A stretch of 64,000 bases of DNA from Selaginella moellendorffii (Eukaryota > Plantae > Lycopodiophyta). Made by a program: the position numbers and the translations under genes. Below the pieces are notes generated by a model. That model did not search any database. It saw nothing but the letters and a program-made list of their open reading frames with translations, and had not been told where the DNA came from. Shown in pieces: positions 10,956 to 58,819 of this stretch (the first letter of the stretch is position 1; every line of letters starts with the position of its first letter). The stretch lies in contig NW_003314341.1 in the NCBI RefSeq assembly GCF_000143415.4, positions 167,869-231,868 of the forward strand, read 5' to 3'.

Positions 10956-12559
10956 GTCACGCCAGGCATCTAGTGTGATGCCGTCCGTAGATGCATATAC
11001 GGAGGTTGGGTTCGAGTCCCGACCCTCTAGTGCTTGGGTTCGAGTCCCAAATCACTAGGGCGTGGTGATGGTTTGGAATATGAGGACACTCATATTTCGG
11101 TGGTCATGGACTCTCAGTGGGGAGACTGGTTTGGGCACACCGCCAAGCGAGGGATGCCTCGGAGTCGTGATGCACGGTTAGATTGCTTAGTGTGAAAGCT
11201 CAGCATATCTAACTTGAACACTTTGGTGCAAGTGGCACCAAGGTCGTGGTGAGTGAGATGGGGACACCTAATCTCAGTTGCTATGGACCCTTGGCCGTAA
11301 GGGCTAGCTTGGGTGCACCGCCAAGTGTGGGGGATGCCCCCGGGGTTATAGTCAACAACTTGGAGGTCTGGAAGACCAAGTACCTCTTGGCAACTCTGTT
11401 AAGGTGCCAAGGTGAGATCACTAGGTGATCTTATGGCCAGATAAGGACGAGGTCCTTGGTTGGCTAAGGAATGAAGTTCCTGGTTCAAAATGTTGAAATT
11501 GAACTGTTTAAGGTGGTGTGGCTTGGTCGTGATAACCAAGTGGGAAGAGCACCTAAGGGAAATAAACTATGTCCGTGCGATGGCATAGTGAGTCCGAGGA
11601 AAGTAGTCTCTATAAAAGACCCATGGGAGGGTCACGAAGTTGGGCCGTGGATAGAGCCCATAGCAGAAGATGCTAAAGAGACGTACTAGGGGTGAACATC
11701 CTCCGGACTTGGCAAAGAAGAGTCTTTGCTATGGAACAGAAACAATACCTCAAGGAGGGAGGTAGAGATTCGATGTTGCTTGGTGCAACAATCAACGGAT
11801 AGGAGCAAAAGATGAGTGGCCAAGATAGGGCCGTGGAATCCATTGGAAGGAATCCAAGTGACAAAGTTAGGCGAGGAACACTAATGTGTTGGACGCTAAC
11901 GAGTTGCAGGAAAGGAAGTGTGTTTCCAAGGAGGGATTCCGAAATGCTCCGATTTGGCAAAAGTGGAAGCTCCAAGGGAGGGAGCGGTAAGGTAGCCAAA
12001 TGATAGGGCCATGAACAGCCCTAGCACAAAGCATGATAACTGGAACTTTGGCACGAAATAGAAGAGAGGATGATGGTGCCCTCGAGTAGAGAACTTCCTA
12101 GGATGGGAAGTGGAGTTGCACAAAAGGTGCAAGGCAAGGTGTCGGAGACACCTAGGAAATCGACTCCAAGAAGTCAAAATTCAAAGTTCCAAAGTGCAAA
12201 GGTTATATCGATGGAAATTGAAACTACTCGAGAAGGAGTAGTGGGATTGACTTAGAGAAGGGTCTCTAAGAGGTTTAGCGAGAACTAAACCAATAAAACG
12301 AGAGAACCACTATATGTGGTCCAATCAGTCTCTAAGTTGGAAAGACTACCCTCCTTAGAGGATATGCAAAAGGCATGGTGAGCCTTCAATGTCCAACCAT
12401 TGATGAATATGGAGAAGGCATGGTGAGCCTTCAATGTCACACCATTGACAAATATTGGCTACGCGCCAAGGATTGAAATGGTAACACATGCGGGTGTTAC
12501 TTTATAAAATGGTTCACCGTTCGATGAGGACATCGAACTTCGTCTATGGGTGGTGGAGT

Positions 12560-14446
12560 TGTGAGACACAAAATCCCTAGGCCCCAAAGTGGAGCTGGAA
12601 GGGCGCCACATGGTAGTGGCCGAAGCGAGAGCCAAACGAGCGTAACACGTTTGGACCAAAAGCTCCGACTTGAAAAGTCAAGAGCGGGAGTGGAACTCCC
12701 AACGAAGTGCTCGAGGAACGAGCACGAAGCGAGCAAAAGGCGAGGCTCCAAAAAGGGACCCAAAAGGACCAACACATGACACGTGGGAGTGTCCGAGATG
12801 GACTCGAGATGGAGTCCGAAGTGGAGTCCGAGGTGGACCCGAGATGGACCCGAGTTGGAGTCCGAAGTGGAGTCCGAGATGGAGTCCGAGATGGAGTCCG
12901 AGATGGAGTCCGAGTTGGAGTCCGAGGTGGACCCGAGATGGACCCGAGTTGGAGTCCGAAGTGGAGTCCGAGATGGACCCGAGATGGAGTCCGAGATGGA
13001 GTCCGAGATGGAGTCCGAGGTGGACCCGAGATGGACCCGAGATGGAGTCCGAGATGGAGTCCGAGATGGAGTCCGAGATGGAGTCTGAGATGGAGTCCAA
13101 GATGGAGTCCGAGATGGACCCGAGATGGAGTCCGAGATGGAGTCCGAGGTGGACCCGAGATAGACCCGAAATGGAGTCCGAGATGGACCCGAGATGGAGT
13201 CCGAGATGGACCCGAGATGGACCCGAGATGGAGTCCGAGATGGAGTCCGAGATGGAGTCCGAGATGGAGTCCGAAGTCGAGACCGAGACCGGAACCGAGA
13301 CCGGGACCGAGACCGAGACCGAGACCGAGATCGGGACCGAGACCGAGACCGAGGCCGAGGCCAAGACCGAGCCCGAGCCCGAGTCCGAGTCCGAATCCGA
13401 ATCCGAGTCCGAGTCCGAGTCCGAGTCCGAGTCCGAGTCCGGAGCCTGAGAGGGTGAAAGCCCAAAGCGTTCGTCTCCCAGACCCTGGGGGGTTTGGTGA
13501 GCTCCAAAAGTATAGTAGGGGGAGGACTGCAGTGGAGCCAGTTTGGCCAGGAAAGGCCAGTTTGGCCTAGGAAGGCCAGACCCAGTGTTGGGTGATGAAC
13601 TGACCACTGGGAAGTCCAAGACTAGAGTGAATACGGACCGACAAGCGGGGTAGCTTGGTGAAGTGTTCAAGAGCCGGCTCTAGTTCCCCCGGGAGATCGA
13701 CTGGCCGATGCTCCCAGTCCAAGTGTGGGTGGCACTACCTACTTGGATACCAGGCGTGGCTCAACGGAACCTCGCTCTAAGACCATGGCTAGAGCACCTA
13801 AAGGCGATAGGTGGGGAGAGTACCTAGGTGGCTCGCGTAAGGCCACGGTGTTCCGAAATGTCGTCCCAAAGGCCCAGACTGTGGAAAGGAAGAGGAGCAG
13901 TCCTCTGGGGTAGTGACCAAGGACACAGTCGTGTGGTGAGGAAGTCCCAGAGGACCGTGGGACTTAGTGGTCGGGCCTGTGGGCCTCGATCCAGTGGCAG
14001 TGTTGGCAAACACGGCCAGGGGCAGAAAGGGACTTGGTAGGAACTGACAAAGGGACTTTGGGGAAGGTGATTCCCCAGGTCTGTGGGCATCCTAAGGATG
14101 CTAAGGAGTGGATCTAGGATGACCCCTCGTAGACAGATGGCCCAGTCTTGGAGAGACGGGATGATGATGCAAGTGGTATTGGACCATTTGCGCAGCAAAG
14201 GTGAATGGGCATGGCCTTAGCGTAACGGGCCGAGATGTCAGTGGTACCTTTGGGTGTCGGTCATGGGATCGGACACGTGGAGCACTTGGACCAAGTGCAA
14301 AGGTTGAGTGGCATGGATGCCATTCTCGGGGCTAGCAAGCCCCAAGTCCTGAATGGGACTTATGGAGGTTGTGAATGAGACTCCTCCAAGTGGTCAAAGG
14401 TGTGGTTAAGTGACTAAAGTAGAATGGAAAAATTTAGTCGCTTACA
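12560..14446 (+). repeat. Family A LTR3 (expanded subrepeat array)
   Basis: TGTGAG...GCTTACA; followed directly by family B gag sequence. Confidence 0.9.
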
Positions 14447-17251
14447 AGTACGTGGGGGAGTCAAGCAAAAAGAGACAAACCCACAGATAAGAAGGTCAAG
14501 TTGTATAGCAGCGTGGGAAACAACGTATGCTACAACTGTGGTGAGGCGGGACACATTTCGAGGGAATGTCCCTACCCGAAGAAGGCTAGAGCCAATATGG
14601 CCATTAAGTCGGGTAAAGTCCAAACTGAGGTATGTGATCCAGTCCCTAGCTCAAAGTTACTCATTACACGAGCAACTTTGGTAGAGAGTCGTTCGCGACA
14701 TCTACTAGCCCTCCAAGGGAAGCTCGGTGGTAGCTTTGTTAAGATCCTTATTGACACGGGTGCTTCGGATAATTTTGTGGTTACAGACATAGTCCGGCAA
14801 GCCGGACTAATGGTGTAGCGGCTAGGCAAACCAAGGACTATAAAGTTTGTTCAAGGTAGCCAAAGCACTGATGAGGTACTTCGACAAACGAGAGTCGAAG
14901 TAGGGACATGGAAAGTGGACATGGATTTCACCGTGTTGGACATGGTGAGATTTGACATGATCTTCGGAATGGATTGGTTTAATCGGTTTGTGGTAGCCCT
15001 GCATAGACAAGGTAGAAACCTTGTGGTACTGGCAAATGCCCAAGGAAGAAGATCTAGGGTGGAGGCCCAGGATCTAAAGGTAGGGCAAAGCAAGGCCAAA
15101 GATTCCTGCTTAAACTTGGTGTCCACAAGAGGACAACTCACTAAAGGAACCAAAGCAGCATTTTTGTGCTTACTTTTGGTGAAGAGTGACAAAAAGACAG
15201 GAACGAAAAAAGTACCTTTAGTGATCAAGCGGGTGTTGGACCAATTCAAGGATACCATGCCGGAGGAGCTACCAGCAGCGTTGCCCCCCGCACGACCGAT
15301 AGAACATAAAATTGAGCTGGTTGAGGGTGTTGAGGCGGTGGTTTGTCCCCCCTATCATTTGAACGAAAAAGAACTCGAGGAGCTCAAGCGCCAATTAGAA
15401 GAGTTGGTGGACAAAGGATATGTTAGGTTGAGCAAGTCATCGTATGGGGTGCTGGTGTTATTTGTGAAAAAGAAAGATGGATCTATGCGCATGTGCATAG
15501 ACTACTGGTTGCTCAACAAGTATAAAAAGAAGAACAAGTACCCTTTCTAAGGATTGAGGACCTGTTCGATAGGTTGGGAAAGGCAAAATACTTATCGAGG
15601 ATTGACCTGAGGTCAGGATACTACCAAATTAGGGTAGCAGAGGAAAATGTTGAGAAGAGAACCTGTCGAATTAGGTATGGGAGCTTTGAGTTTCTGGTGA
15701 TGCCCTTTGGGCTGTGCAATGCGCCAGCAACGTTTTCGGCGTTGATGAACCATATCTTTGTACCCTATCTGGATCACTTTGTGGTCGTCTATATCGACGA
15801 CATCCTGATCTATAGTGAGACACTAGAGGAGCATGCCGAACATTTAGCGAAGGTGTTTGAGAAACTAAGGGAACTCAAACTGTATGCTAAAGAGAGCAAA
15901 TGTGACTTTGCTCAACAAGAGGTAAAGTTTCTCGGGCATGTGGTGGGCCAGGACGGGCTCAAGGTGGACCCGAAGAAGGTCCAAGCGATCCAGGAATGGG
16001 AGAGACCAACGAATGTACATGAGTTGAGGGTGTTCTTGAGGTTATGCAACTACTACCGAAAGTTTATTAGACAACATTCGAGAGTAATCTTGCCCTTAAC
16101 GGACCAAACAGGAAAAGGGAAGATGGTTTGGACAGCGGAATGTGAGGCGGCATTCGTCCACCTCAAAGGGAAGTTGAGGAAGGCTCTCGTGTTGGCATTA
16201 CCAAACTTTGGTAAGGACTTTGAGGTAGAAACGGATGCTTCGGACTTTGCGTTGGGCGCAGTTCTGAAGCAAGACAACCATCTAGTAGCGTTCTTCTCGA
16301 AGAAGTTGGACAAGGCTCAACGGAAGTGGCAATACTACCTTGGGAGACACTTCAAGGTTTACACAGACAATGTGGCAACGAAACACTTCTTGTCACAGCC
16401 CGACCAAAGAGGGAAACAAGGTCGGTGGGCCAATGCCTTGGCCGAGTTTGATTGCAAGATTCTGTACAAGCCTGGGAAGAGCAATATCGTGGCAGATGCG
16501 CTAAGTCGAAAAGCGAGCTTGAGGTTGGTGATATCGAGCGCGACAGCAACCTTTTGGGACGATGTGCGGACAGCATATGAGAATGATGGTCTAGCCCAAG
16601 AAGTGTTGCTGAGGAATCTAGAGGCACGGGAAGCTCACCAGAGAGGTGAGCTGCCAACGGAAGAGAAAATGGGCTATGCAGAACGCAACGGACTCATCTA
16701 TTACAAGCAAACGAGGGTGTATGTTCCAGAAGGGGAACTAAGGAAGGTAGCCTTAGAAGAGTGTCATGACGGACCTCTTGTAGGACACGGCAGAGTGCCC
16801 AAGACGATGGGCTTACTCAAGAGGAAGTACCATTGGCCAGATATGGCTAAGGACGTCCAAGACTATGTAAAGACATGTCCAATATGTCAGCAGGTCAAAG
16901 CCATGACTAAGGCTAGTGGGGTCTTGTTGCAAAGCATCCCAATTCCAGATCGTCCGTGGAAATGTCTTACGATGGACTTCATCATGGGGCTCCCCCCAAG
17001 CAAGGGGTTTGATGCGATATTTGTGGTGGTGCACTGATTTTCAAAAATGGCACATTTCATACCCACCACAACGGAAGTGGATGCAGAAGGTGTGGCGAAG
17101 GTGTTTTTCGAACAAATAGTTCGAGTGCGGGGAAGGCCGGAAGAGATTATCTCAGATCGAGATAAGATCTTCACTAGTAGGTTTTGGAGGACTCTCCTGG
17201 AATAGTATCGCACCAAGTTGAAATTCACCACAGCCTATCACCCATAAACAG

Positions 17252-17298
17252 GTATTGGGTATTAAGTCAAGTTTGATGGCACTAACACTTCTTGACAG
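17252..17298 (+). other. 47-nt GT-AG intron in integrase core
   Basis: GTATTG...CACTAAC...GACAG; removal restores the (T)AYHPQT-DGQTER motif, exactly so in copy B4. Confidence 0.85.
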
Positions 17299-17716
17299 AC
17301 AGACAAACGGAATGGGTGAATAGGCAGCTGGAGGATTATTTGCGATGCTATGTCTTGGGAGACCAGACCGATTGGGTAAGTCATTTGGGACTTGCGGAAA
17401 TGTGTTATAACAACTCACCACATTCGAGTATCAGGGTGAGTCCATGGGAAGTCATAAATGGGCGAGCTATTGAAGGTCATGTGGAACTCGGCGTGGCCGA
17501 GTATCATGGAGAGTTACCCGCAGTGGAGGCATTCACGGCGAAAAGACTCAACATTTGGAATCTAGTGAGGGATTCCTTGGAACGGGCTCAACAAAGGCAA
17601 ACCAAGTACGCGAAGCAGAAGTGCCGGGATGTAGAGTTCCAAGCTGGGGAGAAAGTGTGGCTGAACACCAAGAACCTCAAGTTACCAAGTGGCATTAGCC
17701 GAAAGTTGACCCAAAG

Positions 17717-17768
17717 GTAAAAATGCATGTATTCCTGTAAATGAATTGATCTTGAGTTCCTTAAGCAG
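17717..17768 (+). other. 52-nt GT-AG intron before the integrase GPY motif
   Basis: AG|GTAAAA...TAAGCAG|G; removal gives RKLTQR-FAGPYEIEARIGKVAYRL. Confidence 0.85.
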
Positions 17769-18552
17769 GTTCGCGGGGCCTTACGAGATTGAGGCACGAA
17801 TCGGTAAAGTGGCTTACCGTCTCTGACTTCCTCGAGAGATGGGGAAGATGCACCCCGTGTTCCACGTGAACTTACTCAAGCCGTACTTTGAGGATCCTCT
17901 TCGTAAGGACCAAGTCAGACCTTTACTTGAGGTTATCCAAGGGGAAGAGGAATATGAAGTTGAGGCCATCCTCAATGCGCACAAGAACAAGCGACAAGGA
18001 TGCAAGGTGAGAGAGTTGCATGTGAAGTGGAAAGGATTTCCACACTGCGAAGCAACATGGGAACTGGAGGAGAACCTAATGAACGCATGAAATCTAATGG
18101 AGGAATTTCTGCAAGACAAAACTCTATGTACTTATGCAAAGTTCAATTAAAATATCAATTTGTGAAGTTGAGCAAAGGCATATGTTGGGACCTGAAGGCA
18201 CACCGAAGGTAAGCTAATTAGCATGGGTTAGCTAGGTCGACCAAGCGTAGGGCACTACGCCTGACTCCCCGCGGGGATATCAAATCCGTTGACGTATTCT
18301 ACGGAGGTTGGGTTCGAGTCCCAACCCCCTAGTAAAGCAAGGCTGGGTTCAAGTCCCGACCCCATACTAGGGCGTGGTGAGGTGAGGGGTATAGGGACAC
18401 CTATATTCCGTTGTCATGGTCTCTTGGCCGGGGAGGCTAACTTAGGCACACCGCTAAGTGGGGGGATGCCCCCGGAGACATGGTCAACAAGTCGTAGGAT
18501 CAAAAAGAGACGTTCAATATGGGCATCGAACTTCTTCTATGGGTGGTGGAGT

Positions 18553-19717
18553 TGTAAGGAACCGACTCCCCGAGATGTCGTAGGCTAAAGGATCCCCGAA
18601 AGCATGACCGAAATGACAAAAAAGTTCATCGAATGGGACCGAGTCGAAGATCGAGTCCAAGACCGACTCTGAGATCGAGTTCGAGATAGAGTCCGGAATC
18701 GAGCCCGAGGCCGAATCAGAGACCGAGTTTGAGACCAAGTTCGAGACTGAGTTCGAGAAAGAGTCCAAGATCCAAATTGGGTCCAAGACCGAGTCCAAGG
18801 TCGAGTTTGAAGTTGAGTCCGAGATCGCGTCCGAGATCGAGTCCAAGATCGAGTCCAAGACCGAGTCTGAGGTCGGGTCCGAGATCGATTCGGAGATCGA
18901 GTCCGAGACCGAGTCCAAATACTAATACGGGTCAAGGGGTGAAAGCCCAAAGCGTGTGTCTCCTGGGGGGGGGGGGGGGGGGCTGTAGGGGGTTCCAAAA
19001 GTATAGTAGGGATAGTGAGGTCCAGGAACCAGTCTTGAAGGAACTCTCCAGTGGTGCTTCCAAACTGACTTGAGGTTGAGACTGGGGCCGAGGGGCCTTA
19101 GGTGGGAGTGAGCATGGGCTTGAGTGGTGCCGGAGGGGCCACCCAGGGAAGTGCTCAAGAGCAGCTCCCACTCCTGAAAGGGAAACCGACTGCGGTGCTC
19201 CCAGCTCATGTGGAGTGGTGCCCCACTTGAGTACCTTGTGGCTCATTAGTCCTCGCCCTTCCTAGGGGCTTGGGCCTTCCCTTCGGGATGGAAGTGGGGG
19301 GGTAGAGGTACCCATACCAAGCCATTAGGCCACGGTGTTTCGCCCCGATGTCCCAAAGCAAGTGTTGCACCCAAGGCTTGGGATTTAGAGGGCCCCATGA
19401 TCAAGTCTTGTTGTACCAAGGGGTGTTAGGAACCTGGAAGCTTGGTGTGCTTGGTTGCTTGTGCCTGCGGGGAGTGTAGCTAAACCTTAAGTCCAGTCTA
19501 ACCCGGGGAGGGGGATTGGGAGAGATTTGGGAATCCGTGGATGGATGGCTAACGCTCCGTTGCTCGTATAGTGAGTAGCTGAAACCAAGTAGGATGAAGT
19601 AGGAGTTGGTACAATAACTGGGAACCTTGGCGAGGGAACTTAGCACAAGCCAAAGCAGTGTTGGTCGGGTAGACGAGGTAAGCTAGCAAATTGGAAAGGA
19701 AAAATTTATGGCTTACA
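18553..19717 (+). repeat. Family B LTR (B1 3' LTR) with degenerate GAGTCC/GAGATC hexamer array and Pol I promoter-like block (18915-19016)
   Basis: TGTAAG...GCTTACA; TATAGTAGGG at 19002-19011. Confidence 0.9.
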
Positions 19718-20643
19718 ACCATGACAACAGAATATAGGTGTCTCTATACCCCTCACCCCACCACGCCCTTGTATGGGGTTGGGACTTGAACCCAGACTTG
19801 CTTTACTAGGGGGTTGGGACTCGAACCCAACCTCCGTAGAATACGTCTACGGATTTGACATCCCCTTGGGGAGTCGGGTGTAGTTCTCTACGCTTGGTCA
19901 ACGTAACTAACCTATGCTAATTAGCTTACCTTCAGCGTGCCTTCGAGTCCTAACATATGCCATTGCTCAACTTCACAAATTGATACTTTAATTGAACTTT
20001 GCATAAGTACATAAAGTTCTGCATTGTAGAAATTCCTCTATTAGATTTCGTGCGTTCGCTAGGTTCTCCTCCAGTTCCCATGTTGCTTTGCAGTGTGGAA
20101 ATCCTTTCCACTTCACATGGAACTCTCTCACCTTGCGTCCTTGTCGCTTGCTCTTGTGCGCATTGAGGATAGCCTCGACTTCATATTCCTCTTCCCCTTG
20201 GATAACCTCAGGTAAAGGTCTTACTTGGTCCTTGAGAAGCGGATCCTCAAAGTACGGCTTGAGTAAGTTCACGTGGAACACTGGGTGCATCTTCCCCATC
20301 TCTCGAGGAAGTCGGAGATGGTAAGCCACTTTACCGATTCGTGCCTCAATCTCGTAAGGCCCCGTGAACCTGCTTAAGGAACTCAAGATCAATTCATTTA
20401 CAAAAATACATGCATTTTTACCTTTGGGTCAACTTCCAGCTTCTCCCACTTGGTAGCCTGAGGTTCTTGGTGTTCAGCCACACTTTCTCCCCAGCTTAGA
20501 ACTCTACATCCCGGCACTTCTGGTTCACGTACTTGGTTTGCCTTTGTTGAGCCCGTTCCAAGGAATCCCTCACTAGATTCCAAATGTTGAGTCTTTCCAC
20601 CGTGAATGCCTCCATTGCGGGTAACTCACCCCAATACTTGATT

Positions 20644-22610
20644 TGTAAGCTCCTGAGTTTGGTCTTCCCGGGAGGTCACCCAGCTGTCGCGAATGTGACT
20701 TCGGGTATCGAAAGTTACCTGTCGGCTAGTTATTTCGGATATTCTTTCCTTACAGCCATGATGGCAGGAGGTCGGTATTGCTGGACCCATTATCAGTTCC
20801 CACTTGAGCTAGTTGAGAAACTGGTCATTGACCATGCACTTAAATCAGATAAACATAAGGTAGAAACTCCTATGTGTTTCTTGCTGAGCATACTCGGCCC
20901 AATTTGAGAAACTCCTGTCATTGGCTTGCACTTGCTAGTATCAAGAACCCCCGCAATATTGAGATTGGTCCCTCAACATTGCTAGATGATAGCTTACCGT
21001 GTCTGCCAAACACCCTCGCTATCATGCCCTTTGTGTTAGTCTCATTTCAGTCCCAAATGCTATTTATGGAAAGTGTCCAGATTTGCCCATTTGGTATATC
21101 TACGGGATGTAGAGATTGTTCTAAACACAATGGTGTTTGTCCCGTGTCCAAATTCGCAATTTAGGAACATTCCATATTTAGTAAGTTTCGAGCTTGTCTC
21201 AGAGACTAACTCCTAATACTAAGGGAGGCTTGGGGTGAAAGCCCAAAGCGAGTGTTCCTCAAGGGGGGGAGGGGGGGGGGGGCTATGGGGGGTTCCAAAT
21301 GTATAGTAGGGATAGTGGGTAGGTCGGGCATAGCCGACCAACGTAAGGCATAGTCTAGCTCCCGCTTGTGTGCCTATCCTTGTTTTGCGTTCGGCTTGGG
21401 TCTAAGCCCAAGTTCCATTCCATGCTAGCTGGTGGAGTACCCATGTCCTCACGTTAGGCCACCAGTATGCCGAAATAGCGTTAAACTTCGTTTGGCTCTA
21501 TTTTGGGTGCTGGTCCTAGCATTAGGATGCTGGTTACTCCAGGACTGTTCCAAGTCACTCCGGGCTCCTGTCCCTTCACTCCTTTGGCTGTATTCTCGGG
21601 AGTTGCTTCGTGGTTCGGTTTTGTCACTCCTTGGCTCCAAGCTTGGGAGTTTGGCACCGTTCCTTCGTTCAGTGGACGAAGGCTCTGAAACTCGAGTTCC
21701 GCACCACTGTCCTTTGGACATGTGGCATCTGTCACGTGGCACAAAGAGGGTTTAGGTTTCGCTTCGTGGTGTTATCCTATGGTAAATCACCATAGGATAA
21801 AGGGTAAAAACCACATGCGCTACACCAATCTAGTACTATTCAAACCCAAGGACGATTAACCCTAAATATCCCAAGACCCTTAACCAATTGGAAAAGGGGG
21901 CCCCTTGCCTCTATATTTAAACCCCATGGACCGTCTCTCAAGTCGTTCTCTTTGGTTGCTTACAATCCACCATGCTTCCCTACAAGTTCATGCCCTCGTG
22001 AACGGAAGCTAAGAGCCGCAACTCTCTCTCGAGCCCTGCTCTCTTGACACCCTACCTCTCGGGTCGAGCCCAGCCGGAGCAAACTGGACCAGCTCTCTCG
22101 AGAGCCCCGCTCTCTTGACACCCTACCCCTTGGGTCGAGCCCATCGGGAGCAAATTGGACTGGCTAGATGTCAATCAACATGTGGTGTGAGTCACAACTC
22201 TCCCGAGAGCCCCGCTCTCTTGACACCCTACCCCTCAGGTCGAGCCCAGCGGGAGCAAACTGGACTAGCTCTCCCAAGAGCCCCGCTCTCTTGACACCCT
22301 ACCCCTTGGGTCGAGCCCAACGGGAGCAAACTGGACTGGCCAGATTTCAATCAACATGTGGTGTGATTCCCTTAGCCAACCAATAGAGTTAGACCTGAGA
22401 CCGCTCTGATACCAAATGTAAACTCTTGAGTTTGGTCTTTCCGGGAGGTCATCCAACCCAGTACTATTCAAACCCAAGGACGCTTAGCCCCAAATATCCC
22501 AAGACCCTTAACCAATTGGAAAAGAGGGTGCACTCTTATTCATGGGCCTTTTCCCTCTATATTTGAACCCCATAGACCGTCTCTTAAGTCATTTTATTTG
22601 GTTGCTTACA
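20644..22610 (-). mobile_element. Cassandra-type TRIM (5S-derived boxes in LTRs); 3' LTR split by a family C solo LTR
   Basis: 194-bp LTR 22417-22610; PBS TGGTATCAGAGC (rc 22403-22414); second LTR = 21825-21964 + 20644-20684; 5S-like GTTAAGCG..TAGTACT..GTGACCTCCCGGGAAG; ~70-bp internal repeats 22020-22340. Confidence 0.85.
20685..21824 (+). mobile_element. Family C solo LTR (~1140 bp) with Pol I promoter-like block (21233-21316)
   Basis: TGTCGC...GCTACA; degenerate 5-bp TSD CCAGC/CCAAT inside the Cassandra LTR; TATAGTAGGG at 21302-21311; second partial copy at ~31260-31699(-). Confidence 0.75.
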
Positions 22611-23357
22611 CAAATGTGGTGAGTTGTTATAACACATTTCTGCAAGTCCCAAATGACTTACCCAATTGGTCTGGTCTCCCGAGACATAGTATCACAAATA
22701 ATCCTCCAGCTGCCTATTCACCCTTTCCGTTTGTCCGTCTGTCAAGAAGTGTTAGTGCCATCGAACTTGACTTAATACCCAAAACATGTCTGTGGGTGAT
22801 AGGCTGTGTTAAATTTCAACTTGGTGCGATACTGTTCTAGGAAAGTTCTCCAGAACCTACTGGTGAAGATCTTATCTCAATCTGAGATAATCTCTTCTGG
22901 CCTTCCCCACACTTGAACCACTTGTTCGAAGAACAGCTTCGCCACACCTTCCGCATCCACTTCCGTTGTGGTGGGTATGAAATGTGCGATCTTTGAAAAC
23001 CGATCCACCACCACGAATATCGCATCAAACCCCTCGCTTGGGGGGAGTCCTTTAATGAAGTCCATCGTAACACATTTCCACGGACGATCTGGAATTGGGA
23101 TGCTTTATAACAAGCCCCCACTCACCTTAGACACGGCTTTGATCTGCTGACATGTTGGACATGTCTTTATATAGTCTTGGACATCCTTAGCCATATCTGG
23201 CCAATGATACTTCCTCTTGAGTAAGCCCATTGTCTTGGGCACTCTGCCGTGTCCCGCAAGAGGTCCGTCATGACACTCTTCTAAGGCTACCTTCCTTAGT
23301 TCCCCTTCTGGAATGTACACCCTTGTTTACTTGTAATAGATGAGTCTGTTGCGTTCT

Positions 23358-23645
23358 ATGCTTTATTTCGTTAAAGTGGGACTTTTCATTATCCCACTTA
23401 TGGTGTGTGGCCACATGCCATTTTTATAACAACAATAAAAAATTGAAGTTTTAGCTTTATAATTTATAAATTAAAAACTTTTCATATGATTTTGTGTTAT
23501 AATATTGTGAAATATAAAAAAATAAATTAAAAAACTGATAGAAATATTAATAAATATTAATTAAGTACTAGGAAATGGCATGTGGACACATGCTAATTAA
23601 TGTCCCACTTTACTGAATAAGTCCCACTTTAACGAAATAAAGCAT
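23358..23645. mobile_element. 288-bp MITE
   Basis: 27-bp perfect TIR ATGCTTTATTTCGTTAAAGTGGGACTT; 4-bp TSD TTCT; AT-rich core; removal restores B2 pol (GYAERNG). Confidence 0.9.
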
Positions 23646-25491: not shown

Positions 25492-28400
25492 CATGACTAA
25501 GGTGAGTGGGGACTTGTTACAAAGCATCCCAATTCCAGATCGTCTGTGGAAATGTCTTACGATGGACTTCATCACGGGACTCCCCCCAAGCGAGTTGTTC
25601 GATGCGATATTCATGGTGGTGGACCGATTTTTGAAGATGGCACATTTCATACCCACCACAACGGAAGTGGATGTGGAAGGTGTGGCGAAGCTGTTCGTCG
25701 AACAAGTGGTTTGAATGTGGGGAAGGCCAGAAGAGATTATCTCAGATCGAGATAAGATCTTCACTAGTAGGTTTTAGAGGACTCTCCTGGAATAGTATCG
25801 CACCAAGTTAAAATTCAGCACAGCCTATCACCAACAGATAGATATTGGGTATTAAGTCAAGTTCGATGGCACTAACACTTCTTAATAGACGGACAAACAG
25901 AAAGGGTGAATAGGCAGCTGGAAGATTATTTGCGATGCTATGTCTTGGGAGACCAGACCAATTGGGTAAGTCATTTGGGACTTGCGGAAATGTGTTATAA
26001 CAACTCACCACATTTGAGTATCAGGGTGAGTCCATGGGAAGTCATCAATGGGCGAGCTATTGAAGGTCCTATGGAACTCGGCGTGGCCGAGTATCATGGA
26101 GAGTTACCCGCAGTGGAGGCATTCACGGCGGAAAGACTCAACATTTGGAATCTAGTGAGGGATTCCTTGGAACGGGCTCAACAAATGCAAACCAAATACG
26201 TGAAGCAGAAGCGCCGCGATGTAGAGTTCCAAGCTGGGGAGAAGGTGTGGCTGAACACCAAGAACCTCAAACTATCAAGTGGGATTAGCCGAAAGTTGAC
26301 CCAAAGGTAAAAATGCATGTATTCCTATAAATGAATTGATCTTGAGTTCTTTAAGCAAGTTCATGGGGCCTTAGGAGATTGAGGCACGAATCGGTAAAGT
26401 GGCTTACCGTCTCCAACTTCTTCGAGAGATGGGGAAGATGCATCTAGTGTTCCACGTGAACTTACTCAATCTGTACTTTGAGGATCCGTTTCGCAAGGAC
26501 TAAGTAAGACCTTTACCTGAGGTTATCCAAGGGGAAGAGGAATACAAAATCGAGGCCATCCTCAATGTGCGTAAGAGCAAGATTTCCACACTGCGAAGCA
26601 ACATGGGAACCGGAGGAGAACCTAGCAAACGCACGAAATCTAATGGAGGAATTTCTGCAAGACAGAAATTTATGTACTTATGCAAAGTTCAATTAAAATA
26701 TCAATTTGTGAAGTTGAGCAATGGCATATGTTGGGACCCGAAGGCGTGCCGAAGGTAAGCTAATTAGTATGGGTTGGCTAGGTCGACCATGCGTAGAGAA
26801 CTATGCCCGACTCCCCGCGGGGATGTCGAATCCGTAGACGTATTCTACGGAGGTTGGGTTCGAGTCCCAACCCCCTAGAAAAACAAGGCTGGGTTCAAGT
26901 CCCAACCCCCTACTAGGGCATGGTGGGGTGAGGGGTATAGGGACACCTATATTCCGTTATCATGGTCTCTTGGCCGGGGAGGCTAACTTAAGCAACTGCT
27001 AAATGGGGGGATGCCGCCGGAGACATGGTCAACAAGTCGTAGGATAAAAAGAGACGTTCGATGTGGGCATCGAACTTCTTCTATGGGTAGTGGAGTTGTA
27101 AGGAACCAACTCCCCGAGGTGTTGTAGGTTAAAGGATCCCCAAAAGCATGACCAAAATAACAAAGAGTTCATCGGATGGGACCAAGTCGAAGATCGAGTC
27201 CAAGACCAACTATGAGACCGAGTTTGAGATAGAGTCCGGGATCGAGTTCAAGGCCAAATCAAAGACCGAGTTCAAGACTAAGTTCAAGACAGAGTTTGAG
27301 ATCCAAATCGGGTCTGAGACTGAGTCCGAGGTCAAGTCTAAAGTCAAGTCCGAGATCGGGTCCAAGATTGAGTCCGAGATCGAGTCCGAGACCGAATCCT
27401 AAGTCGGGTCCGAGACCGAGTCCGAATACTAATACGGGTCAAGGGGTGAAAGCCCAAAGCGTGCGTCTCCCCAAGGGGGGGGGGGGGGGGGGAGCTGCAA
27501 GGGGTTCCAAAAGTATAGTAGGGATAGTAAGGTCCAGGAATCAGTCTTGAAGGAACTCTCTAGTGGTGCTTCCAACCTGACTTGAGGTTGAGATTGGGGC
27601 CGAGGGGCCTTGGGTGGGAGTGAGCATGGACTCGGGTGGTGCCGGAGGGGCCACCCAAGGAAGTGCTCAAAAGCAGCTCCCACTCACCAAAAGGAAACCG
27701 ACTGAGGTGTTCCCAGCTCATGTGGAGTGGTGCCCCACTTGAGTACCTTGTGGCTCATTGATCCTCGCCCTTCCTAGGGGCTCGCCCTTCCTAGGGGCTT
27801 AGGCCTTCCCTTCGGGATGGAAGTCGGGGGGTAGAGGTACCCATACTAGGCCATTAGGCCACGGTGTTTTGCCCCGGCGTCCCGAAGTAAGTGTTGCATC
27901 CAAGGTTTGGGATTTAGAGGGTCTCATGATCAAGTCTTGTTGTACCAAGGGGTGTTAGGAACCTGGAGGCTTGGTGTGCTTGGTTGCTTGTGCCTGTGGG
28001 GAGTGTAGCTGAACCTTAAGTCCAATCTAACCCGAGGAGGGGGATTGGGAGAGACTTGGGAATCCGTGGATGGATTGCTAATGCTCCATTGCCCGTGCAG
28101 TGAGTAGCTGAAACCAAGTAGGACCAAGTAGGAGATGATACAATAGGCAGGAACCTTGGTGTGGGAACTTAGCAAAAGCCAAGGCAGTGTTGGTCGGATA
28201 AATGAGGTAAGCTGGCAAACTGGAAAGGAAAAATTTGTCGGTTACAATTTGGTATTGGAGCCTTTTCCTCAATTCTAGCGAAGGATAGAGGTGGATTGCT
28301 GGGAGATGGCAAAGGTAGGGCATAAACGAACCCAAGCGGCGACGGAACCTCAGCCAGAGTTGGAGCCTCCGGTCAAACAAGAGGCTATGGATGAGGAATC

Positions 28401-28597
28401 CTTGCATGAGGAGGACTCCAGTGAGGAAACTTCCAAATAGGAGTCCGGTGGCGAGGCTCGATCATTCAAGGCTTGATTGGACGTTCTAGAAGGACAATTG
28501 GCACAAACCAATGCCCTGCTGGAGACTCTCGTGCGCAAGTTAAAGCGTGACGAGAAGCGGAAGAAAAAGTGAAAGACTATTGATGCTAGTAGCGCAG
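25492..28597 (+). mobile_element. Family B copy B3: integrase/chromodomain remnant - LTR (27097-28246) - PBS - gag start
   Basis: Homologous to B1/B4; TATAGTAGGG at 27514-27523; PBS TGGTATTGGAGC 28250-28261; intron remnants 25842-25888 and 26307-26358. Confidence 0.9.
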
Positions 28598-28963
28598 TTA
28601 GTAAAGTTTAGATAGACTATTATAAATAGGTAGTTAGAGTTCTTTACACAGTCATACCTTTTTTAATGAAATAAAGAACATTGAGAGAGAGGGGGGTGAT
28701 ATGACTAGTTGACAGTAGCTACCCCATAACTAAAGATGTCACTATGCACACGAAATGCTAAAGATAGTCTGCCTATGCTGACCCAAACTCAAAGATCAAT
28801 AGATAAACCATATCAAAGTCAAAGACAAAATAGAATTCACTATCCAACAAAATTCAATAGCAAGTGTATCATTAAGAAAACTCAATAATAAAACTTAACT
28901 ACAGATAGTATATCAAACAACTTACAGAAAATAATTAAAGAATACAAAGTATCATTAACAGAT

Positions 28964-29720
28964 TGTAAGCAACCAAAGAGAACAATTTAAGAGACGGTCC
29001 ATGGGGTTCAAATATAGAGAGAAAGGGCTCATGAATAAGAGTGCACCCCCTTTTCCAATCGATTAATAGTCTTGGGATACTTGAGGTTAAGCGTCCTTCG
29101 GTTTGAATAGTATTGAGATGGGTGACCTCCCAGGAAGTCCAAACTCAAAAGCTTATATTTGGTATCAGAGGGGGTCTCGGGTCCGACTTTGTTGGTTAGC
29201 TTAGGGAAATCACACCACATGTTAATTGACATCTGGCTGGTCCAACTTGCTCCCACTGGGCTTACCCGAGGGGTAGGGTGTCAAGAGAGTGGGGCTCTCG
29301 GAAGAGTTGTGGCTTTTAGCTTCTGTTCATAAGGGCGTGAACTTGTAGGGAAGCGTGGTGGATTGTAAGTAACCAAAGAGAACGACTTGAGAGACGATCC
29401 ATGAGGTTCAAATATAAAGGGAAAGGGCCCATGAATAAAAGTGCACCCCCTTTTCCAATTGGTTAAGGGTCTTGAGATATTTGGGGTTAAGTGTCCTTAG
29501 GTTTGAATAGTACTAAGCTAGGTGACCTCCCGGGAAGTCCAAATTTAGGAGCTTACATTTGGTATTAGAGGGGTCTCGAGTCCGACTCTATTGGTTGGCT
29601 AAAGGAATCACACCACATGTTGATTGACATGAATAAGAGTGCACCCCTTTTTCCAATCGGTTAAGGGTCTTGGGATACTTGAGGTTAAGCATCCTTGGGT
29701 TTGAATAGTACTGGGCTGTA
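28964..29720 (+). mobile_element. Cassandra-type TRIM, complete unit 28964-29557 plus partial tandem unit
   Basis: 194-bp LTRs 28964-29157 and 29364-29557; PBS TGGTATCAGAG 29160-29170; PPT GGGAAGCGTGGTGGAT; 5S box A/IE/C homology at 29085-29140; second PBS after LTR2. Confidence 0.88.
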
Positions 29721-30044
29721 TCACCTGAAGGAAATAACATCATAATCTATCAAAATTAACTCGAGTAACAATCAACAAAACAAAATGAATATGATAAGAC
29801 TAACAAATACTTATTTATACCAATTATCTCACCAGCTAATCTGAATAGATCCTGGTCAATAATATGAAGGAACTCAAGTTGCTTAAGCAAGCATCAACAA
29901 CATCCTACTAATGTCTCAAACCTAAAAGACCAATCTAGAGCAAACCACAAAGAATATATGGCAAATGCAAAAAGCCATAAGTTATCAAAGTGAATAACTA
30001 ACTATTATGAAAGATCATCAATCACCTCATCAATAGAGAAATAC

Positions 30045-30347
30045 TATAAGTAACCAAAGGGAACGACTCGAAATACGATTCATATAGGTTCAAATATAAA
30101 GGGAAAGAGCCCATGAACAAAAGTGCACCCTTTTTTCCAATCGGGTAAGGGTCTTAGTATATTTGGGGTTAAGCGTATTTGGGTTTGAATAGTACTGGGC
30201 TAGGTGACTTTGCAGGAAGTCTAAACTCAGGAGTTTACATTTGGTATCAAAGAAGTCTCGGGTCCAACTCTATTGGTTGGATAAGGGAATCACACCACAT
30301 AATCACATCACACCACTCCTAGGAAGTCTAAACTCAGGAGTTTACAG
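30045..30347 (+). mobile_element. Degenerate Cassandra LTR + PBS + partial internal region
   Basis: Homologous to 29364-29620; LTR 30045-30239. Confidence 0.8.
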
Positions 30348-31699: not shown

Positions 31700-32898
31700 C
31701 TTTGTCTCATACTTCCTTATATTTCTTCCATTCCTTTGACTTTTATATCTCTTTGTCCCTTTTCTTCTAACTCTGTTTCCATCAGTTTTGTCTCCCCATT
31801 ACTTTCTCCTATGTTTTTGTTTTGTTCCTTTCTTCCCTTTTCTAATCCCTCATACAATCTTTGTATTGCAGTGGTTGGCTGGATCATGAAGGAGTATGCC
31901 GATCTCTTTGAATTTAACCTGTCATCTGAGGCTAAGATTGCCACATCATCCTATTCCAATTAGGGATGCTCATCTAATTAAGGTTCAAGTTCATTGTTGA
32001 TCACCTAAAAAGATCAAGATTTTACATGCAAATGTTAAGAAGATGTTGGAAAAGGGTGTTATTCGAGTCCTTAGGCATGTAAACTTCATCTTGTGACAAA
32101 GACTAATGAAAGTATTTGTTTCTACATTGACTATAGTTTATTAAATGAAGTGATGGTTCTGAATGTGTACTTTCTTCCTCATACTACTAATCTCTTGGAT
32201 TATCTAGGGAGAGGTTGTTGGTTCACCAAGTTAAATTTTGTTTTTGGGTACTGGCAAATACCGATAGCCAAAAAAAATTATTTTTAAGACTACTATTTGT
32301 ACACTGTTTGGTTTGTATGAGTTCTTAGTGATGCTATTTGGTTTGAACAATGCCCTAGTAACTTTCTAGCGTATGATGGACAAGGTTCTTTACAATATGC
32401 TAGAGGTGACTGCTAATTTCATCAATGATATCTTGATCTACTTAGAGGGGAGGTGGGAGGAACACATCTATGATGTTCGTAAGGTGTTGGATTGGTTACG
32501 GGTTAGTTTAAAGCTAAAGCAGTCGAAGTGCGTGTTTAGGTCTAAGGACACGACTTATCTTAATATTGTATTTCTCGTGAGGGTTTGCAAGTTAGTCCTA
32601 GCAAAGTTGTGGCTATTCTAAAATTCCCTACTCTGAAGTGTATAAATGATGTGTAGTGCTTATTAAGCAAGATGTAGTATTTCAGTTGTTTTGTTAATCA
32701 TCTTTCTAATTGCATTACACCATTGCAAGTGTTGCTGAAGTCATCAACATCATCTTTCATCTAGTCTGTAGATTGTGAATGGGCATTTATGGATCTTAAA
32801 GAGCTCTTTACAACTCCTCTAGTTTTAGCGTATCCTGACTACATTTGACCTTGCTTTTGATATCAATCTTAAAGGTGTGTTGATACAAGAGAGCCTAA

Positions 32899-35009: not shown

Positions 35010-38000
35010 TGTAAGGAACCAACTCCCCGAGATGTCATATGCTAAAGGATCCCCGAAAGCATAACCGAAATGACAAAGAGTTCATCAGATGGGACCGAGT
35101 CGAAGATCGAGTCCAAGACCGACTTTGAGACCAAGTTCGAGATAGAGTTCGGAATCGAGCCCGAGGCCGAATCAGAGACCTCTCCAATAGTGCTTCCAAA
35201 TTGACTTGAGGTTGAGACTGGGCCGAGGGGCCTTGGGTGGGAGTGAGCATGGGCTTGGGTGGTGCCGGAGGGGCCACCCAGGGAAGTGCTCAAGAGCAGC
35301 TCTCACTCCCGAAAGGGAAACCGACTGCAGTGCTCCTGGCTCATGTGGAGTGGTGCCCCACTTGAGTACCTTGTGGCTCATTGGTCCTCGCCCTTCCTAG
35401 GGGCTTGGGCCTTCCCTTCGGGATGGAAGTGGGGGGGTAGAGGTACCCATACCAAGCCGTTAGGCCACAGTGTTTTGCCCCGATGTCCCGAAGCAAGTGT
35501 TGCACCCAAGGCTTGGAATTTAGAGGGTCCTATGATCAAGCCTTGTTGTACCAAGGGGTGTTAGGAACCTGGAGGCTTGGTGTGCTTGGCTACTTGTGCC
35601 TGCGGGGAGTGTAGCCGAACCTTAAGTCCAATCTAACTCGGGGAGGGGGATTAAGAGAGCTTTGGGAATCTGTGGATGGATGCTAACGCTCCGTTGCTTG
35701 TGTAGTGAGTAACTGAAACCAAGTAGGACCAAGTAGAAGCTAGTACAATAGGTGAGAACCTTGGTGAGGGAACTTAGCACAGGCCAAGGCAGGGTTGGTC
35801 AGATAGACGAGGTAAGCTGGCAAATTGGAAAGGAAAAATTTGTGGCTTACAATTTGGTATCGGAGCCTTTTCCTCAGTTCTAGCTAAGGATAGAGGCGGA
35901 TTGCTGGGAGATGGCAAAGGCAGGACATAAGCGAACCCAGGCGGAGACAGAACCCCCACCAGAGCTGGAGCCTCCGGTCGAACAAGAGGCTATGGATGAG
36001 GAATCCTTGCATGAGGAGGACTCCAGTGAGGAAACTTCCAAACAGGAGTCCGGTGGCGAGGTTCGGTCGTCCAAGGCTCGATTGAACGTTCTAGAAGGAC
36101 AATTGGCGCAGACCAATGCTCTACTGGAGACTCTCGTACGCAAGCTAAAGTGTGACAAGAAGCGGAAGAAAAAGAAAAAGACTGCAGATGCTGGCAACGC
36201 AGAAGGTGTGGACCCTTCGACAAGGACTGAGGCAAAACCAGACAAGGTTAAACAAACCGAAGTGGAATCAGTCCTTCAGGTAGTTCCCAAGTACAAACCA
36301 AAGCCCCCACCGGTCTTCAAGGGAGTGAACGATTATAAGGTGGTGGAGGATTGGTTTTACGATATGGAGGACTACTTCTGAGCGTTGCGGTTACCGAGCT
36401 CGGAGAAGGTCCCATATGCAAAACTATACTTGGCAGATAATGCCAAGTCTTGGTGGAGAACGACAGAGGCCAACGAAGGACCAGTGGCCACTTGGGAAAT
36501 GATGAAGGTGAGGATCCGCGTGACTTATGTTCCTCCGAATGCTACTCTACATCTAAGGGACGAGCTGAGTAGGCTGAAGCAGACCGGAACCATTCAAGAA
36601 TATGTGAATGGGTTTATGGCAAAGAGGATACTTGTCACGGACATGGGGGATATGGATGCGTTCCATGCCTTCATATCAGGTTTGCAAACCTGGGCTCGCG
36701 GTGAGGTGATGCATTGGAACCCAACCAACTACAAGGAAACGTTGGATGCGGCCATCAAGGTGCATTTCATCGTTTATCATTTCAACGTTTTTGGCGTTGA
36801 TGAACCATATCTTTGTACCCTATTTGGATCACTTTGTGGTCGTTTATATCGATAACATCCTGATCTATAGCGAGACACTAGAGGAGCATGCCGAACACTT
36901 GGAGAAAGTGTTTGAAAAACTAAGGGAACACAAACTGTATGCTAAAGAGAGCAATGCTCAACAAGAGGTAAAGTTTCTTGGGCATCTAGTGGCCCAGGAC
37001 AAGCTCAAGGTGGACTTGGAGAAGGTCCAAGCGATCTAGGAATGGGAGCGACCATTGAATGTACATGAGTTAAGGGCATTCTTGGGGCTATGCAACTACT
37101 ACCGAAAGTTTATCAGACACTATTCGAGAGTAGCCCTACCCTTAACAAACCAAACAGGAAAAGGGAAGATGGTTTGGACAGCGGAATGCGAGGCGGCATT
37201 CGTCCACCTCAAAGGGAAGTTGAGGAAGGCTCCCGTGTTGGCATTACCAGACTTTGGTAAGGACTTTGAGGTAGAAACGGATGCTTCGAACTTTGCGTTG
37301 GGCGCAGTTCTGAAGCAAGACAACCATCTAGTAGCATTCTTCTCGAAGAAGTTGGACAAGGCTCAACAGAAGTGGCCTGCCCACGAGAAGGAATTGTTTG
37401 TGGTGGTCAAGGCACTCAAGGAGTGGCAACACTACCTTGGGAGACACTTCAAGGTTTACACAGACAATGTGGCAACGAAACACTTCTTGTCACAGCCCGA
37501 CCAAAGAGGGAAACAAGATCAATGGGCCAATGCCTTGGCTGAGTTTGATTGCAAGATTCTGGACAAGCCTGGGAAGAGCAACATCGTGGCAGATGCGCTA
37601 AGTCAAAAAGCGAGCTTGAGGTTGATGATATCGAGCGCGACAGCAACCTTTAGGGACGATGTGCAAACAGCATATGAGAATGATGGTCTAGCCCAAGAAG
37701 TGTTGCTGAGGAATCTAGAGGCACGGGAAGCTCACCAAAGAGGTGAGCTGCCAACGGAAGAGAAAACGGGCTATGCAGAACGCAACGGACTCATCTATTA
37801 CAAGCAAACGAGGGTGTATGTTCCAGAAGGGGAACTAAGGAAGGTAGCCTTAGAAGAGTGTCATGACGGACCTCTTGCAGGACACAGCAGAGTGCCGAAG
37901 ACGATGGGCTTACTCAAGAGGAAGTACCATTGGCCAGATATGGCTAAGGACGTCCAAGACTATGTAAAGACATATCCAACATGTCAACAGGTCAAAGCCG

Positions 38001-50080: not shown

Positions 50081-51055
50081 AAGTTGCCGTGCCGATTTGT
50101 TGTTTGCTATGTGGGTATGGATCGATCACGCTCTTTTTGTTTCCATTTCCTTTTAGAACTTTCGATTTCATGGTTGTGACTGATATGATGGACTAGGCTC
50201 GTGCTCTTGATGATGGTTTTTGCTTCCTCCCTTCTATACTTAATAATAACCAGGGATGTATGTTCACGTGACTTCAGTCTCTAGTTATAATCCAAGTAAA
50301 TTTCTTGATTTGTGTTGGTTGAATCTCAGCAAGAAGTACTCGACTGCCAGGATGAGCACAGAAACGTCCTCGTCTCGTCGCAGCACTGCCGGCGATCCGA
50401 AGAGATCACAAACAAGTAGACCTGACCTCCCTCTCCTCTCCTTTTCATCTTTTCTCCCTTCCCTCCACGCACCACTCTTTTATCGTCTTCGAACAGCCAT
50501 AACTCTGTTGCAACCGCAACAGCAACACCTGGAGGGGCTGGCTGGATGCTGTGCGATTGGGATGCGAGCAGCGAGCGGCAGCACAAGCTCTGTGGCCCGT
50601 GTAATCTTAGGCACAAGAAGTTGGTATGAAGGATTCAATGCTCCTCCTCCCTCCTCCACTCGGTTTAAAAACACCAGGCATATAAAAAACTATCAGGCTA
50701 GGCAAGCAGCAAGAAGCTTTAAACCAAAGCTTTAGTATTTCGCAGCCAGCTTCTGCAATACAGCCGATAGAGCATTTTCTACAGCCAGCCCTGAGAGATT
50801 GTGCTTGTATGGGGGCCCCAGGGCAACGCGACAAACAAAGATGCCTACGCAAAGAGAGAAGAAAAGAAAAAAAAAAAAAGGAAAAGGTGACGAGCACCAG
50901 CAGCCTTGCCTGGATCTCATTATACCTATGAATGTAGTGCAGGGACAGTTAACCGCAATCCAAATTCATCCACTCACATTTTTCTGCTGCAATCTCATTC
51001 TTTATTCTTCCGTGGCTGCTTCCATCCAGAGGGGCGATGAGAGCTTCAGCCTCCG

Positions 51056-53064: not shown

Positions 53065-53142
53065 TGGAAGAGAAGAAGAACCCTAAAAAGAGAGAAGTGC
53101 TCCTCCCCAGGGTTTATGTCGATATTGTAGGGCTAATGCGAG

Positions 53143-58312: not shown

Positions 58313-58757
58313 CTAGTAGCTATTGCCCGTGAACAAGTCCTCCTTGACAACCGCCAGGATCTCGTCGTCCTCGTACAGCTCAAACCTGCCAATGGTTCAA
58401 AGATCAATCCATGCTTTCATGGAAGTTGTTCTTACTCCCTGTCGTAGAGGCGAATGGTGGTGCCCGGATGATCCGGGAGGAGAACCGTGTCCCCGACCTT
58501 GACAGTGTTTGGGATGCGTTTCCCAGTCTCCGTCACCTTGCCCCCGCCCACGGCAACCACTCTCGCCGGAACGCACTATGGAACCACAGACAAGAATCAT
58601 GAGGGACAAGTCTCACAAGTGGAGAAAGAGCAACCTTGCTTAAGCGCAGCCGCGTGGGGAGATAGAGGCCGGCGGATGTTATGTCCTTGAAATCGATCTT
58701 CTCCAGCAGCACCTTGTCCAGGATTGGAACGAACTTCTTTACCGCCGCCGACGCCAT
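58313..58757 (-). CDS. CPN10: 10 kDa chaperonin (Cpn10/GroES family), 3 exons
   Basis: FVPILDKVLLEK..TSAGLYLP; VVAVGGG..VKVGDTVLLP; FELYEDDEILAVV. Confidence 0.8.
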
Positions 58758-58819
58758 CGCGCGCTCTCCTTAAACCCTAAACCCCTTCCCCCCTTTTAGG
58801 GCTCCATCGAGTTGCTGCC

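Follow-up and report, generated by a model that had tools for sequence, protein, structure and literature searches.

Two putative host-sized introns interrupt the integrase of a Selaginella moellendorffii chromovirus that is very likely SM1-Galahad

The integrase of a Ty3/gypsy chromovirus of Selaginella moellendorffii is interrupted by two short inserts of 47 and 52 nt that are almost certainly real introns. Both occur at identical places in all four copies of the element (B1–B4) within the window, the whole 64-kb stretch of DNA that was analysed, and a transcript-like contig omits both of them exactly. On balance, we favor a model in which a spliced mRNA makes the integrase and a pool of unspliced RNA is reverse-transcribed, much as in BARE1.

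Results

Position, ends and composition of the inserts

The inserts and the exons that they delimit are listed below in window coordinates; contig set X1 and run X15 are described with the transcript data.

B1 intron 1, 17252–17298, forward strand: 47 nt, GT..CAG, phase 1, in-frame TAA at 17263–17265
B1 integrase exon 2, 17299–17716, forward strand: 418 nt, starting just before the catalytic Glu; 318 bp from ATG to stop
B1 intron 2, 17717–17768, forward strand: 52 nt, GT..CAG, phase 2, TAA immediately after the donor G
B1 exon 3, 17769–18150, forward strand: GPY motif and chromodomain; 309 bp from ATG to stop
B2 intron 1, 22739–22785, reverse strand: 47 nt
B2 intron 2, 20370–20421, reverse strand: 52 nt
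B3 intron 1, 25842–25888, forward strand: donor GT lost
B3 intron 2, 26307–26358, forward strand: acceptor AG lost
B4 intron 1, 38349–38395, forward strand: skipped exactly by an X1 contig and by one X15 raw read
B4 intron 2, 38814–38865, forward strand: skipped exactly by the same X1 contig
B4 exon 3, 38866–39247, forward strand: chromodomain (Chromo PF00385, E 5.5e-14)

Both inserts are bounded by GT..AG with a YAG acceptor in B1, B2 and B4, i.e. in three of the four copies at each site, and the sites of B3 have decayed. The intron 1 donor of B2 retains its GT within an altered surrounding context. Each insert shifts the reading frame and contains an in-frame TAA, and the GC content of 38% (intron 1) and 35% (intron 2) compares with 46–51% in the adjoining exons. 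When random stretches of equal length were placed at the two sites (200,000 trials each), GT..AG ends appeared in any equivalent register in 0.8–1.0% of trials at the intron 1 site and 1.4–1.7% at the intron 2 site, which corresponds to a joint probability of about 1e-4. A branch-like CTAAC motif lies 17 nt before the end of intron 1, and intron 2 offers only TTGAT at −23; a branch-point-like motif was found in 6 of 13 host introns. The introns of the host RecQ gene, whose identity was confirmed, measure 40–81 nt, with 12 of 16 at 46–56 nt, and the 23 introns of two host genes of the window measure 40–86 nt with a median of 54; both sets come from a rough script parse in which some introns are missed or misplaced. 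The spliceosomal nature of the inserts is therefore supported by their ends, size, composition and exact register, and by the joined form reported below.

RNA folds of the two introns were no better than those of shuffled sequences (z 0.13 to 1.89), and no second copy of either was found within the 64-kb window with up to 12 mismatches allowed. With respect to origin, neither a local duplication nor a likeness between the two introns was detected. Five and four letters fit either side of the two joints (38343–38391 and 38811–38864), as in proto-splice-site gain or short direct repeats; the splice consensus accounts for most of them. There was no clear sign that the introns are more conserved than the exons (5.7% and 7.1% versus 4.3–9.6%).

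Integrase reading frame and homologues

B4 was translated with an X at each break and compared with 152 homologous proteins, 151 of which could be aligned. Junction 1 is ungapped in 137 of the 151 and gapped in one (13 do not span it), and the codon split at this junction corresponds to Asp in 128 of the 138 spanning homologues. Junction 2 is ungapped in 105, gapped in 11 and not spanned by 35. Once the inserts are removed, the catalytic triad has a spacing of 35 between its second Asp and its Glu (D,D35E). The intron 1 site is located four residues before the catalytic Glu, and the intron 2 site precedes the GPY motif and the chromodomain. In the unspliced form, the open reading frame (ORF) ends ahead of the catalytic Glu; if intron 2 alone is kept, the ORF ends immediately beyond the donor, short of the GPY motif and chromodomain. 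With the two breaks placed ahead of these parts, the need for a spliced mRNA to make the integrase, proposed in the preliminary description, follows from the anatomy of the element.

Most of the preliminary description of the locus is borne out by these data. Its eight coordinates are all correct; the shifted frames and in-frame stops that it reported are present, with a TAA in each insert; the splice sites of B3 that it called partly mutated have lost one site per intron; the size that it likened to that of the RecQ introns (47 and 52 nt against 40–81 nt by the rough parse) is indeed similar; and precise removal restores the integrase, with homologues mostly ungapped at both junctions and the expected D..E spacing of 35.

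The best named matches are chromodomain-bearing polyproteins of angiosperms, at 42–47% identity. The protein libraries contained no close relative, with nothing long above 47% identity and one partial match of 52% over 32% of the query, a weak negative because the family seems to be absent from those libraries. Among metagenome contigs one distant locus (L001) was found; no relative was present among viral contigs, and no match to exon 2 in the PDB.

Organization of the copies

The remaining parts of the element that could be delimited are as follows.

B1 exon 1 remnant, decayed, 14448–17251, forward strand: CCHC knuckle, protease (PR), reverse transcriptase (RT), RNase H and N-terminal part of integrase
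B1 3' LTR, 18553–19717, forward strand: TG..CA ends, poly-G tract
LTR after B3, 27097–28246, forward strand: followed by a presumed Met-tRNA primer binding site and the start of gag
B4 5' LTR, internally shortened, 35010–35851, forward strand: presumed Met-tRNA primer binding site at 35855
B4 exon 1, 35911–38348, forward strand: gag, internal deletion at about 36770–36783, end of RT, RNase H and N-terminal part of integrase
B4 3' LTR, 39650–40744, forward strand: 1095 bp, poly-G tract, 8.4% different from the 5' LTR

Domains identified by Pfam and tblastn follow the gypsy order of Gag, CCHC, PR, RT, RNase H, integrase and chromodomain. The LTRs are 1095–1165 bp long with TG..CA ends, and three of four contain a poly-G tract of 16–18, which is missing from the shortened one. 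Judged by domain order, TG..CA LTRs and primer binding site, the element is a Ty3/gypsy chromovirus. A scan of the four LTRs gave no TATA or AATAAA motif, and the element yielded no recognizable promoter pair, R region or packaging signal. B4 is the only copy with two LTRs and is old and rearranged; its flanks differ, so that no 5-bp target-site duplication was found. The LTR downstream of B3 (window 27097–28597) has the primer site and gag start next to it, as if tandem elements shared one common LTR.

The copies are embedded in other repeats. On its 5' side, the B1 exon 1 remnant adjoins the LTR end of a different family, and the end of its 3' LTR is flush with the 3' UTR of B2, i.e. a nested insertion. 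The different family occupies 2937–14447 with long, repeat-rich LTRs in tandem (2937–5137 and 8755–10955 are 99.5% alike); a primer site lies at 5143, tblastn gave no match to pol, and the final LTR stops within the gag of B1, at 14447. Foreign insertions have lengthened exon 2 of B2 to 2317 nt. Short, roughly 270-bp repeats at 21823–22610 and 28961–30300, one of which sits inside this exon, have primer-site-like motifs at 22414 (reverse strand), 29160 and 29560 and likely represent a small non-autonomous LTR element. B2 also contains an AT-rich, MITE-like insertion (23358–23645) that is about 290 bp long and has long terminal inverted repeats, and an old AT-rich reverse transcriptase remnant of a different element lies at 32063–32570. 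Host genes fill 43183–63868 and encode divinyl chlorophyllide reductase, kelch, fasciclin, two PPR proteins, a GH17-X8 glucanase and RecQ. The reverse-strand genes at 51000–53100 and near 58320–58760 are presumably cyclase-associated-protein-like and chaperonin-10-like, respectively.

Family identity

One of the host genes in the window groups with named S. moellendorffii proteins. We take the primer binding site to be that of Met-tRNA from its motif, alongside the published description of SM1-Galahad, a family of the same host. In the sections of PMC3350952 that deal with this family, it is described (Novikov, Smyshlyaev and Novikova 2012) as having LTRs that exceed 1 kb and contain poly-G, a primer site of the Met type, and a consensus in which the ORF ends in the core integrase and is followed by two more ORFs, one of 316 bp and a last one of 309 bp that carries a group I chromodomain. 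The element studied here shares all of these features: host, LTR length, poly-G, primer site, an ORF that ends in the core integrase, and a chromodomain in the last of two downstream ORFs, which measure 318 bp (316 in the published consensus) and 309 bp from ATG to stop in both B1 and B4. The element is thus very likely SM1-Galahad, matched by description, not by consensus sequence. The one difference is in interpretation: PMC3350952 refers to "additional short ORFs", and the word "intron" is absent from its main text and supplement text. Both breaks are probably family-wide, and were seen in 2012 and not recognized as introns.

According to the same sections, SM1-Galahad has hundreds of copies with a mean similarity of 95%, among which an intact copy was not found; intact copies were found for three other families, and the sister family SM2-Galahad has one ORF (PMC3350952). 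No target-site duplication is given there for SM1-Galahad. The introns would explain this oddity of three ORFs and no intact copy. Membership in the Tcn1 clade was considered and ruled out: the descriptions of that clade in PMC2864245 and PMC6317226 give no tRNA primer binding site (self-priming) and, for SM-Tcn1, a short LTR, whereas the present element has a primer binding site and an LTR of about 1.1 kb.

Relationship of the four copies

Private changes in the four copies number 30, 50, 48 and 32 across an alignment of 1397 columns and are chiefly C>T and G>A; the 2:2 splits between copies (21, 12 and 10) are mutually incompatible. No stop codon is common to all four in the stretches tested, and the LTR-LTR distance of B4 resembles the distance between copies. 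This pattern fits separate retrotransposition events from a source that would have had open exons and both inserts, followed by decay.

No further frame-breaking insert common to the copies was found in PR-RT-RNase H; a stretch of gag is missing from all four copies. A frameshift of B1 near 15530 is absent from B2.

Joined form in probable transcripts

Three raw RNA-seq runs (X15, X16 and X17, about 12% of each) and contig set X1 were compared with B4. X1 derives from a run that was only guessed to be RNA, its library type not being on record. Record 5 of X1 (1083 nt, about 94% like B4) skips exactly 47 and 52 letters, both with GT..AG. No X1 contig covers either insert (the depths of 5.25 and 4.81 amount to 9.36 when counted over exon letters alone), which fits what a translated pool would give. 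One of the nine matched raw reads of X15 skips the 47 nt of intron 1; X16 gave two partial reads and X17 none. At intron 2, no raw-read joint was seen in these portions of X15–X17, and the X15 bin across it has a depth of 0.66, above what one spliced read would yield. The junction reads named as a check in the preliminary description were therefore obtained in part: a contig that joins both exon pairs, from a set guessed to be RNA, and a raw read for intron 1, but none for intron 2. Its candidate further splice donor, near 36760 in gag, is not supported: another contig is collinear with B4 up to 36769, the point of the internal gag-to-RT deletion of B4.

Lineage of the joined form

Among the 158 changes counted for X1, 111 are A>G or T>C, opposite in direction to the deamination that predominates in B1–B4. 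Selection was assessed on 40 of these 158 differences, all inside a coding span of 605 letters. The contig has a letter seen in none of B1–B3 at 13 of them, and third codon positions account for 12 of the 13 (4/4 in exon 1, 8/9 in exon 2). This excess is significant both against an expectation of one third (p 1.7e-5) and against the 30 of 74 private letters of the window copies (Fisher p 6e-4). In addition, the contig shares none of the three stop codons of B4 in the 605-letter span. Since private letters concentrate at third positions and the B4 stops are missing, the joined form comes from a lineage in which purifying selection has continued to act on the integrase, also on the exon that follows intron 1; on this pattern, the joined integrase of the family is functional. 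At 2.1% of the 605 sites the contig is unlike any of the four copies, which places it in a younger lineage; its source locus, represented here by the contig alone, is younger than B1–B4.

Discussion

Proposed mechanism

We infer that copies with both introns must stem from unspliced RNA and integrase from spliced RNA. In the model that we favor, the spliced mRNA would yield the full integrase with its chromodomain, and a separate unspliced pool would be packaged and reverse-transcribed, so that new copies inherit both introns. The joined form would arise by splicing, and most SM1-Galahad copies would carry both inserts. That unspliced RNA serves as the template for reverse transcription is suggested by the four independently decayed copies, all of which contain both introns, together with the published three-ORF consensus. 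The persistence of the introns across many copies calls for sorting, because a copy without introns would have full coding capacity and would breed true. By analogy, this sorting may be like that of BARE1: a capped, polyadenylated, spliceable pool would be translated, and an unspliced pool with R repeats would be packaged. Translation of the unspliced RNA, should it occur, would produce Gag-PR-RT-RNase H followed by an integrase truncated ahead of the catalytic Glu, and in a single-ORF element this would also shift the Gag-to-integrase ratio upward. With regard to the preliminary interpretation, spliceosomal introns and the need for a spliced mRNA are retained, the candidate gag donor is not supported, and the unspliced template is a deduction from the four copies and the three-ORF consensus.

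A stronger version of this model is more tentative, and we would not bet on it. In what would be an autonomous, high-copy family, every active copy might keep both micro-introns, with intron-less copies nearly absent; splicing might mark an RNA for translation and bar it from reverse transcription; and retention of intron 2 alone might give an integrase without GPY motif and chromodomain, as a target-site switch. If true, the strategy would be the inverse of that of Copia.

Alternative explanations

The introns could instead belong to an older lineage, and a young expressed subfamily could have lost them via spliced RNA or never had them, in which case the contig is a transcript of intron-less DNA. 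This explanation is unlikely, although it would account for a contig lineage that is distinct from B1–B4 and under selection, and for the lack of either insert in any X1 contig. It is also in line with the single ORF of the sister family SM2-Galahad (PMC3350952) and, from the part of PMC12786077 that deals with reporters, with the disappearance of introns put in LTR reporters from new copies. Against it, no intact SM1-Galahad was found among the hundreds of copies at 95% mean similarity, though three other families yielded intact copies, and the consensus has three ORFs (PMC3350952); the lack of a long protein above 47% identity in protein libraries points the same way, weakly, as the family seems to be absent there.

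Somewhat less likely again is a scheme with no dedicated sorting, in which only part of the RNA is spliced, spliced and unspliced forms are both packaged, and the genome comes to hold a mixture of copies that have two introns, one or none, the intron-bearing ones being better expressed or less silenced. Ogre and EVD transcripts are as a rule only partially spliced, according to portions of PMC6317226 and PMC5580714, and neither intron resembles a packaging signal. Such a scheme is hard to reconcile with both introns in all four copies, with both breaks in the published consensus (PMC3350952), and with the expectation that an intron-less, fully coding copy should breed true and accumulate.

We consider it very improbable that the copies are DNA-level duplicates of one intron-bearing element, such that no intron ever survived reverse transcription. 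The clustering of the copies in 26 kb, the 2.2 kb near-identical repeat of another family in the window and the lack of a target-site duplication at B4 would agree with duplication. These are outweighed by the star-like divergence without a stop common to all four, the differing flanks, the flush end of the B1 LTR inside B2, the LTR-LTR distance (8.4%) as large as that between copies, and the hundreds of copies genome-wide (PMC3350952).

Chance inactivating insertions in a non-autonomous sublineage are scarcely credible: all four copies are indeed decayed, with stops and deletions, but the joint GT..AG probability, the host-like size and composition and the branch-like motif of intron 1 speak against them.

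Implications

The textbook demonstration that LTR elements transpose through RNA is that introns are lost from their new copies. A family that depends on the removal of two introns to make integrase and nevertheless keeps them in its copies would be a natural reporter of the separation between mRNA and genomic RNA, and each precisely intron-less copy would be the record of a sorting error, countable in the existing assembly. Relative to the single-ORF sister family SM2-Galahad, the two introns would represent intron gain in a retroelement. The organization described here also suggests that ORF-based searches for intact elements overlook intron-bearing families.

Comparison with known systems

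Foamy viruses translate Pol, including integrase, from a spliced RNA and package the unspliced one. The proposed scheme resembles this in that integrase would come via spliced RNA and unspliced RNA would be packaged; it differs in that the single large intron of foamy viruses removes gag and does not split the integrase domain.

Plant LTR elements are generally without introns, with Ogre and EVADE as the exceptions named in the relevant part of a 2025 review (PMC12786077). Splicing in LTR elements is thus known; obligatory micro-introns inside the integrase are apparently unreported. Full-text literature, apart from most subscription journals, Repbase and two large REXdb supplements, gave no report of host-sized introns inside an LTR-element integrase or of introns in SM1-Galahad. 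An analysis of Arabidopsis Ty3/gypsy elements, presented in PMC5580714, found no conserved splicing. Penelope-like elements, as characterized in sections of PMC8557442, are likewise retroelements whose introns are retained after retrotransposition, but they are not LTR elements and have no DDE integrase, and the intron of those studied is in the 5' UTR.

The Ty3/gypsy element Ogre (Tat lineage) contains an intron between ORFs that, in the account excerpted from PMC6317226, is spliced from a subset of transcripts to give the whole polyprotein; the likeness is that intron removal enables translation and that genomic copies retain the intron. Bagy2 and CRR also splice, as listed in the portion of PMC3735527 on such elements. 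In BARE1, translated and packaged RNA pools are kept apart, as that portion also describes (PMC3735527). Like the element described here, the Ty1/copia elements BARE1, EVD/ATCOPIA93 and Drosophila copia retain a small or alternative intron in their genomic copies. According to the passages on them in PMC5580714 and PMC3735527, these three splice to make Gag only and leave the enzymes to the unspliced RNA, whereas in the present chromovirus only the spliced RNA can encode integrase.
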